NCBI GenBank assembly: GCA_951406725.2
Contig: OX597837.1
Location: 27,342,001 to 27,406,000 of the forward strand
From: Octopus vulgaris
Lineage: Eukaryota
DNA length: 64,000 nt
Direction: 5' to 3'
The notes beneath the pieces were generated by a model. The model saw only the letters and a list, made by a program, of their open reading frames with translations. It did not search any database and was not told the origin of the DNA. The first letter of the stretch is position 1. Each line of letters opens with the position of its first letter. The translations under genes and the position numbers were made by a program. Positions 39,485 through 40,558 of this stretch are shown here, piece by piece.

Positions 39485-40558
39485 CCGGATTCCCGTTTGC
39501 GCCGTGAACAGGAATTAATCTTCTCTCTTCGCTCTTATACGCCATTTGGTCTCAACTCTCCCCCCTCCTCATCTAACCCCCCTCTCCCCCCTCCTCACCT
39601 ATCCTTTTTCCCCCCGACCCCTACTTCTTCAGTCCTTCATCCTTTCACCCCTACTCCCCTTCCCTTCTTCCCTCTTTCTCCCTCCCTCTTCCCCTTCCCT
39701 CTGCTCCCTCACTCCCCCTCTCCCCTTCTCTCTCCCCCTCTCCCTCTTTCCTCCTTCATCCCCCTCATCCCCTTCCTTCTCCCCCATCCTCTCCTCTCCC
39801 CCTTCTCCTCCCCCTCTTCTTCCCCTCCCCTTCTCCCCCCTTCTCCCCCCCCCCCTCTTCTCCTCACTACACCACATGACTTTACACATCACATCACATA
39901 TGATGTGCCATACTAATACACACACACCAACTAATACATACTAATACGTACTAATACATACTAGTACATACTAATACTTACACCAACCCTATACATACAC
40001 ACGTCCAGACCCCGCATACGCACTTATACTCTCTCTCACACACACACACACACCTATACATACCAATACGTACTAATACATACTAATACATACTAATACA
40101 TACACCAACCCCATACATACGCACGTCCAGACCAATCTTACGCACTAATACTCTCTCATACACACACACACACACACACACACACCCTTATACATACTAA
40201 TACATACACCAACCCTATACATACACACATCCAGACCCCTCCCACGCACTTTTAGCTGGTCCCTCAACCCTTTTATCAACCCTATTATCTCCCCTTATTT
40301 CGCTCTCGCGTCTCATGTTTGATCTTTGACCTCTGGCCGAAATCAGATCGCCATGTTGATTCGTTAGCTACTGCACGCATTTTTTTCTCTCCTTCTTTCT
40401 GTGTTTTTCTCTCTCTGTGTATCTTTCTGTTGAAGAGCGTAGGCTCGAAACGTTAAAGACTTGTTTTATTTATATTTCCTGAGCGCCATACTAATACAAT
40501 TGTTCGTTTGTTTTCCACCTGCCTTCGTCTTTTGTTTATTTTCATAAAGCTTCCCGTT
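39485..40558 (+). mobile_element. 5'-truncated Penelope-like element (GIY-YIG C-terminus, 3' UTR, hammerhead) within (TA)n
   Basis: [21 protein letters not shown] at ~39494-39556 fits the R..RE...I..L....P.GLN end of PLE GIY-YIG domains; (TA)n on both sides. Confidence 0.85.
40422..40459 (+). ncRNA. Minimal type I hammerhead motif (variant core CUGUUGA)
   Basis: Identical to 3582-3619 in the opposite orientation. Confidence 0.7.

Follow-up and report, generated by a model that had tools for sequence, protein, structure and literature searches.

A Penelope-like element of Octopus vulgaris with uridine at position 6 of its hammerhead motif

In Octopus vulgaris, a family of minimal hammerhead motifs carries uridine at core position 6 (U6), and this is the state of young elements with long open frames as well as of all eight subfamilies distinguished. 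Position 6 belongs to the uridine turn, and its A is normally near-invariant. Judging by its sequence features, the host is a Neptune-type Penelope-like element (PLE), with the hammerhead in its terminal repeat and tandem units of ~4.5 kb. We give about even chances to the reading that the U6 hammerhead is an attenuated ribozyme, which would leave most RNAs uncut, acting probably as a dimer and aided by the protein of the element. One genome offers here a natural experiment, in which a near-invariant base has changed, the rest has been kept and amplification has continued, beside sister lineages with a normal core. Papers are cited throughout for the passages of them available to us.

U6 copies in the window and in the genome

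The window, i.e. the whole analysed stretch of 64,000 nucleotides (contig OX597837.1, positions 27,342,001 to 27,406,000), contains several copies of the family (Table 1). Two of them, at 40422-40459 on the plus and 3582-3619 on the minus strand, show the same order of stem I, CUGUUGA, extra A, stem II, GAAA, CG, UU and stem I'. A sequence-only reading of this DNA had reported CTGTTGA at both places and CTGTAGA at 52483, with GUU or GUA sites, and the sequences indeed read so. It had also described the first two as near-identical insertions; both do carry CUGUUGA, but they point in opposite directions, and an alignment over 780 nt with 7 gap openings shows them to be 92.6% alike. The insertion at 39483..40564 is 96.3% identical over 1083 nt to the full-length unit L121. 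Stem I has 5 bp in two window copies and 3-4 bp in other copies, the 3 bp of the copy at 52483 being due to a private change. The downstream GAGCG motif is a possible alternative partner of the 3' strand of stem II, its predicted pairing probability being only 0.03-0.16.

Table 1. Features of the hammerhead family in the window
Feature	Position	Strand	Remarks
Minimal type I hammerhead with U6	40422..40459	+	architecture as in PMC4209133
Stem I of this hammerhead	40422-40426/40455-40459	+	5 bp
Core C3-A9	40427-40433; U6 = 40430	+	CUGUUGA
Extra A after A9	40434	+	
Stem II	40435-40446	+	GAGC-GUAG-GCUC, 4 bp, GUAG loop
GAAA; palindrome ACGU	40447-40450; 40450-40453	+	
Predicted cut site	between 40454 and 40455	+	
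5'-truncated insertion, Neptune-type PLE	39483..40564	+	youngest subfamily (S7); flanked by (TA)n tracts
GIY-YIG endonuclease frame, C-terminal fragment	39485..39577	+	translation matches ORF end of element
Position -96 from cut site	40359	+	recurrent junction point in other copies; putative RNA 5' end / transcription start
GAGCG motif, conserved, downstream	40478..40485	+	common to sister A6 families
Conserved 3' tail and element 3' end	40516..40561	+	~107 nt past cut site, then (TA)n
Second S7 insertion	3477..4257	-	hammerhead 3582-3619, U6 at 3611
Short S4 subfamily copy	52470..52612	+	core from 52483, CUGUAGA, GUA site
5'-truncated copy broken off inside hammerhead	39218..39275	+	core missing

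The identification of position 6 as U depends on the register, which is fixed by the minimal architecture of PLE hammerheads (no stem III, palindromic 15.2-16.2, extra base after A9). An alternative register with UUGAAGA as core was ruled out, since minimal PLE hammerheads have been described with an extra A behind A9 (PMC4209133) and the freely varying column falls at position 7 in the chosen register. Of the features of sequence and structure that define minimal PLE hammerheads, stems I and II, the G10.1-C11.1 pair, a palindromic minimal stem III (ACGU) and the extra nucleotide after A9 are all present, and A at position 6 is the one that the family lacks. A search demanding CUGANGA would miss such a motif, as had been anticipated from the sequence: Rfam covariance models gave no match at E<=10 in 40300-40560, and the seed used in PMC8557442 is cuganga.

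With positions 6 and 7 left free, the motif has 16,332 exact matches in the genome, against 0 for a reversed control. Tabulation of position 6 over genomic copies, the check that the sequence-only reading itself had proposed, gives U and not A as the consensus: 15,730 copies (96.3%) read U, 180 read A and 422 read C or G. As a neutral control, the U4-to-A change is found in 106 copies; the A6 copies are 1.7 times as many (p 1e-5), so they are likely mostly mutations following insertion, plus a small excess. This excess could be assigned to no subfamily; it would fit a distinct basal A6 subfamily, but the 4 A6 copies among 48 basal ones share no convincing marker. Chance or sequencing error as origin of the motif and of U6 was ruled out by the zero control and by the presence of U6 in young long-ORF loci; decay of U6 from A6 after insertion was ruled out as well, the minority A6 copies being scattered over the tree described below.

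A sample independent of the ribozyme was anchored in the 3' tail (20,661 matches, the first 100 on contig 1 read). Seventy-eight copies reach the hammerhead, and 22, truncated or with indels, were set aside. U6 is present in 76 of the 78 and A6 in 2, while C3, U4, G5, G8, A9, G12, A13, A14, A15.1 and U16.1 are each kept in 73-78 copies and the extra A after A9 in all. N17 is A in 61, U in 14, C in 1 and G in 2, in keeping with the NUH triplet. Decay of these copies is mainly of CpG type, with no erosion at subfamily level.

When stem II is left free, U6 cores number 23,786 and A6 cores 14,686 (controls 36 and 34). A second, unrelated and abundant A6 minimal-hammerhead family shares the ACGU palindrome and has GGCUG/CAGCC as its stem II, which is longer. 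A contig from the run of a second organism matches 40290-40543 without differing letters; the comparison is a weak one, since the contigs compared vary neither at position 6 nor at position 7, where variation is known to occur.

Host element and history of U6

A search with the endonuclease part of the element yielded 17,357 candidates, 150 of which were scored. All 30 loci fetched read CUGUUGA, and so do all 20 loci with open frames > 900 aa. Together with the genome-wide 96.3%, these counts agree with the earlier suggestion that U6 is the consensus of a lineage that kept transposing. Units are 4.4-4.6 kb long, with a mean difference of 0.8% among 17 of them. In 16 of the 20 long-ORF loci the hammerhead lies on both sides of the ORF, as in pLTR partial tandems. 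The single ORF joins a reverse transcriptase (RT) with a DKG motif and YxDD (RVT_1 E 1e-7) to a C-terminal GIY-YIG domain (E 0.006, below the Pfam cut-off), with CX4CXXC, a form of CX2-5CxxC, in the linker between them. The 3' ends of the element sit in (TA)n, i.e. in microsatellite targets, and a homologue named Octopus bimaculoides is 69% identical. RT, GIY-YIG and pLTR tandems bear out the PLE assignment made from the sequence.

With the Neptune clade of EN+ PLEs, as defined in PMC8557442, the octopus element shares the DKG-motif RT, the Cys-rich linker, the C-terminal GIY-YIG, (TA)n targets and partial tandems with inverted pieces. It differs in the non-canonical core of its hammerhead, and we place it by these features rather than by RT phylogeny. 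In the youngest subfamily (L106-L125; window 39560-39580), the frame is shifted by a C-run at the end of the ORF, reads beyond the stop of the older L010 and gains a variable Pro/Ser/Leu-rich tail; the loci were chosen for long frames and are thus a biased sample in this respect.

Of 255 copies, 180 could be assigned to one of eight U6 subfamilies (S0-S7) or two sister groups, the classes being of our own definition. Median divergence of the U6 subfamilies from consensus runs from 8.9% down to 0.0%, and the two window copies at 40422 and 3582 belong to S7, the youngest. A tree built on the flanks, the core having been masked, has the shape of a ladder. A6 copies occur here and there in it, and a separate sister clade has stem II and 3' end in common with the U6 family, but A6. 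In sister families with homologous 3' ends, A6 is found in 39 of 39 classified copies, mostly fetched by the A6 pattern. The sister families and the tree, all from this one genome, indicate that U6 is the derived state. Two sister A6 copies lie in the window, at 37349-37378 (-), with the decayed core CCGACGA, and at 3213-3280 (+), 3' tail only.

The variant had been supposed to mark a young family. This did not hold: in the basal subfamily, the oldest found, a hand count of the first 100 listed of 509 matches gave U in 82, C in 12 and A in 6. With an octopus calibration of 0.09 for 25 million years (PMC13282606), U6 would be some 20-25 million years old. Two basal U6 copies, L160 and L182, have in common a UUCG loop and, within stem II, a U-U mismatch; they are possibly a small side subfamily.

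Constraint, traces of cutting and predicted folding

From S0 to S7 the consensuses keep 32 hammerhead columns without a single change, while the 160 flank columns show 129 substitutions (Fisher p 1e-8); two classes are small (S5 n=3, S2 n=5) and the flank rate is inflated by ragged ends. The sole hammerhead columns that differ between subfamilies are N7 (5 changes) and N17 (3 changes, only A or U and never G), and both change faster than the neutral estimate. N7 and N17 are the positions left free in working hammerheads. Many copies of the ladder were fetched by means of the motif itself, and the tail-anchored set gives the same invariance. S3 was tied 7:7 through oversampling of A6, its tail-anchored members reading U in 7 of 7. 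At fourfold sites, the youngest subfamily has diverged by 0.30 from an S3-type copy and by 0.43-0.52 from basal ones (single copies, their own decay included), which makes the absence of change in 32 columns unlikely by drift (P about 1e-5). At position 6 alone, absence of change has P about 0.67 and is non-significant, so it carries no selection signal for U6 itself. Loop II is invariant across subfamilies too, beyond what catalysis alone explains. G12 and G8, to which (in the case of G8, to its 2'-OH) catalysis is assigned (PMC6155905), are unchanged in all eight consensuses. Taken at the sequence level, the conservation pattern leans towards residual function.

Of 153 copies with a junction between pLTR and 5' leader, 81 were examined and 80 placed. 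Seventy-four reach past the cut site in the upstream direction, one stops at +4 and five further down; none of the 80 starts at the cut site. Since 74 span the site, the RT template was uncut or seamlessly re-joined. The only recurrent junction is at -96, found at 5 independent loci, 4 of which are joined there to different points of their own leader or ORF. We infer that this recurrence suggests a defined RNA 5' end (transcription start), combined with template jumps or circles. Solo 3' copies show a broad spread, with no sharp pile-up at -96. Nor do short copies show a pile-up of 5' ends at the cut site beyond TA microhomology: ends at the site make up 7 of 38 U6 events and 10 of 30 events of the A6 sister, a non-significant difference (p 0.17, among the matches listed). 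These are hand counts, the 38 coming from the first 100 of 228 rows with repeats merged and 2 ambiguous cases dropped, the 30 from 32 rows. In the 80 junction copies and 38 short-copy events, genomic 5' ends give no clear sign of efficient cutting.

Locus L358 (G000:C8:18599500-18604500) holds five tandem units of ~492 nt, each with a U6 hammerhead, with no ORF and with the -96 junction. Short ORF-less tandem units are also present at L341, L342, L345, L353, L359 and L382, 468-492 nt long where measured. They consist of the pLTR and part of the leader, each with a U6 hammerhead, and most join exactly at -96. These units resemble retrozymes that have only just arisen; alternatively, repeated template jumps or a circular RNA could have produced them. 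Tandem ORF-less hammerhead units liken L358 to non-LTR retrozymes (PMC7229834; bioRxiv 10.64898/2026.07.22.740005). It differs from these in being a direct deletion derivative of a young autonomous element, with a minimal non-canonical ribozyme, and is known from DNA alone.

In folding predictions, the core can pair with the ACGU palindrome when position 6 is U, and the resulting hairpin has -10.2 kcal/mol compared to -7.8 for the open fold. The pair 6-A15.1 has a predicted probability of 0.94 in 34 U6-U7 copies and of 0.32-0.69 in the remaining U6 groups; for natural A6 copies it is 0.00. Stem II is predicted with a probability of 0.94-0.99 in U6 groups. U4-G5-U6 would pair with A15.1-C15.2-G16.2, masking the palindrome required for stem III of the dimer, and the monomer would thereby be kept in an inactive hairpin. 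When two copies were co-folded, the predicted minimum was not the hammerhead dimer; an active form would therefore need help.

Possible roles of the U6 hammerhead

About 150,000 variants with short stem III are reportedly contained in the work of Lunse et al. 2017. In the literature searched and the searchable part of the PMC4209133 supplement we found no natural A6U core and no octopus U6 family, though the alignments of Lunse et al. 2017 may already contain them; the supplement passages in the searchable file hold CUGA cores and no Octopus entry. With the minimal type I hammerheads of PLEs (Cervera and de la Pena 2014, PMC4209133) the octopus motif shares the lack of stem III, the palindromic 15.2-16.2, the nucleotide added between 9 and 10.1, the G10.1-C11.1 pair, the short stem I, the position in the pLTR and the predicted use as a dimer; the core variant reported there is U3-A8, whereas the octopus consensus has U6. 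A natural pyrimidine at position 6 is known from the A6C hammerhead of phage Bcep176 (Perreault 2011, PMC3088659; Naghdi 2020, PMC7151607), which cleaves below 0.1 per min (PMC3088659) and prefers Mn2+ (PMC7151607). Activity of the phage ribozyme is low but real and its C occurs at a single phage locus, whereas the octopus U6, known from sequence alone, is found in ~16,000-24,000 copies of an amplifying lineage. The hammerhead of the green anole Poseidon element PAc (PMC11167929) likewise lies in the pLTR, with internal RT initiation and a tail past the ribozyme. Its ORF start overlaps the ribozyme, whereas the first Met of the octopus element is several hundred nt downstream.

The hammerhead-specific pattern of constraint leads us to favour an attenuated ribozyme over the other explanations considered. 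Most transcripts would then stay uncut and RT would copy through the site, which would yield partial tandems; occasional cleavage of dimers could still free unit-length or circular RNA. The slow cleavage of the natural A6C core (PMC3088659, PMC7151607) and the hammerhead of the anole element, which cut only with the protein of the element (PMC11167929), speak for this reading. Against it count the low activity of single mutants of the CUGA turn (PMC9901934), the weakness of minimal PLE hammerheads even where they carry A6 (PMC4209133) and the lack of starts at the cut site among the 80 junction copies. A serious though less probable explanation, to which we would give about one chance in three, is that the fold does not cut at all and is kept for protein binding, RT positioning, or as an internal promoter or 5' leader of the pLTR. 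The 74 of 80 junctions spanning the site and the sole recurrent end at -96 agree with this, as do the invariance of loop II and the fact that no A6 revertant subfamily rose, A6 copies being only 1.7 times the neutral figure. Catalytic mutants of the anole element left insertion in vitro unaffected (PMC11167929), and Naiads flourish lacking canonical hammerheads (PMC8557442). A non-cutting fold has more difficulty with N7 and N17, as only these two vary between subfamilies and N17 is never G, which is the catalytic rule, and there is no evident reason for a protein or promoter site to obey it.

That sister elements cut U6 RNAs in trans with their A6 hammerheads, by way of mixed dimers, seems improbable to us. 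The genome holds A6 minimal-hammerhead matches in plenty (the 14,686 above) with the same ACGU palindrome, and sister families could pair 3 bp of stem I with the U6 3' arm. Such cutting, however, gives no reason why C3, U4, G5, G8, A9 and stem II should have stayed unchanged in the U6 copy, and the sampled sister subfamilies, at 5.8% and 11.3% from consensus, exceed S7 (0.0%) in age. Least probable, and largely refuted, is a dead relic carried without selection on a successful master element. A6 substitutions are harmful in tested hammerheads (PMC9901934, PMC3088659), all single mutants of the CUGA turn having low activity in a deep scan of a type III hammerhead (PMC9901934), and neutral losses can become fixed in a single master lineage. 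Against it stand the 32 hammerhead columns unchanged over about 0.3-0.5 substitutions per neutral site, which rule out pure decay, and the tail-anchored copies, whose decay is mainly at CpG without subfamily-level erosion.

Within the reading of an attenuated ribozyme, it is conceivable, though we hold it only tentatively, that the lineage tuned its ribozyme down, U6 acting as a conformational lock opened by the element's own protein or a partner RNA, and changes at N7 and N17 being successive retunings of the cutting rate. If so, U6 would be a new natural class of active core, missed by CUGANGA-based searches, and no minimal-hammerhead core of its kind would be commoner in this genome. It is still open whether PLEs depend on cutting by their hammerheads (PMC4209133, PMC11167929, PMC8557442). 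If U6 is active, the hammerhead consensus widens and descriptor searches miss tens of thousands of motifs; if inactive, the fold is kept for a purpose other than cutting.

Three further sequences were noticed in the window. Two inverted copies of a repeat, on either side of (TA)n at 28830-29074, would form a long hairpin; an Rfam microRNA match there is below threshold and likely spurious. At 48530-48581 (-), immediately preceding a (TA)n tract, lies a hammerhead-like motif with U3-A8 covariation (UUGAUAA), a 5-bp stem II, GAAA and the palindrome CAUG, which has one diverged relative, in L042. Finally, 14380-15220 (+) contains about 6 tandem repeats, GC-rich and ~146 nt long. CUGACGA, a short hairpin, GAAA and a run of U recur in every one of them, so that this is a possible retrozyme-like or rewired hammerhead array.
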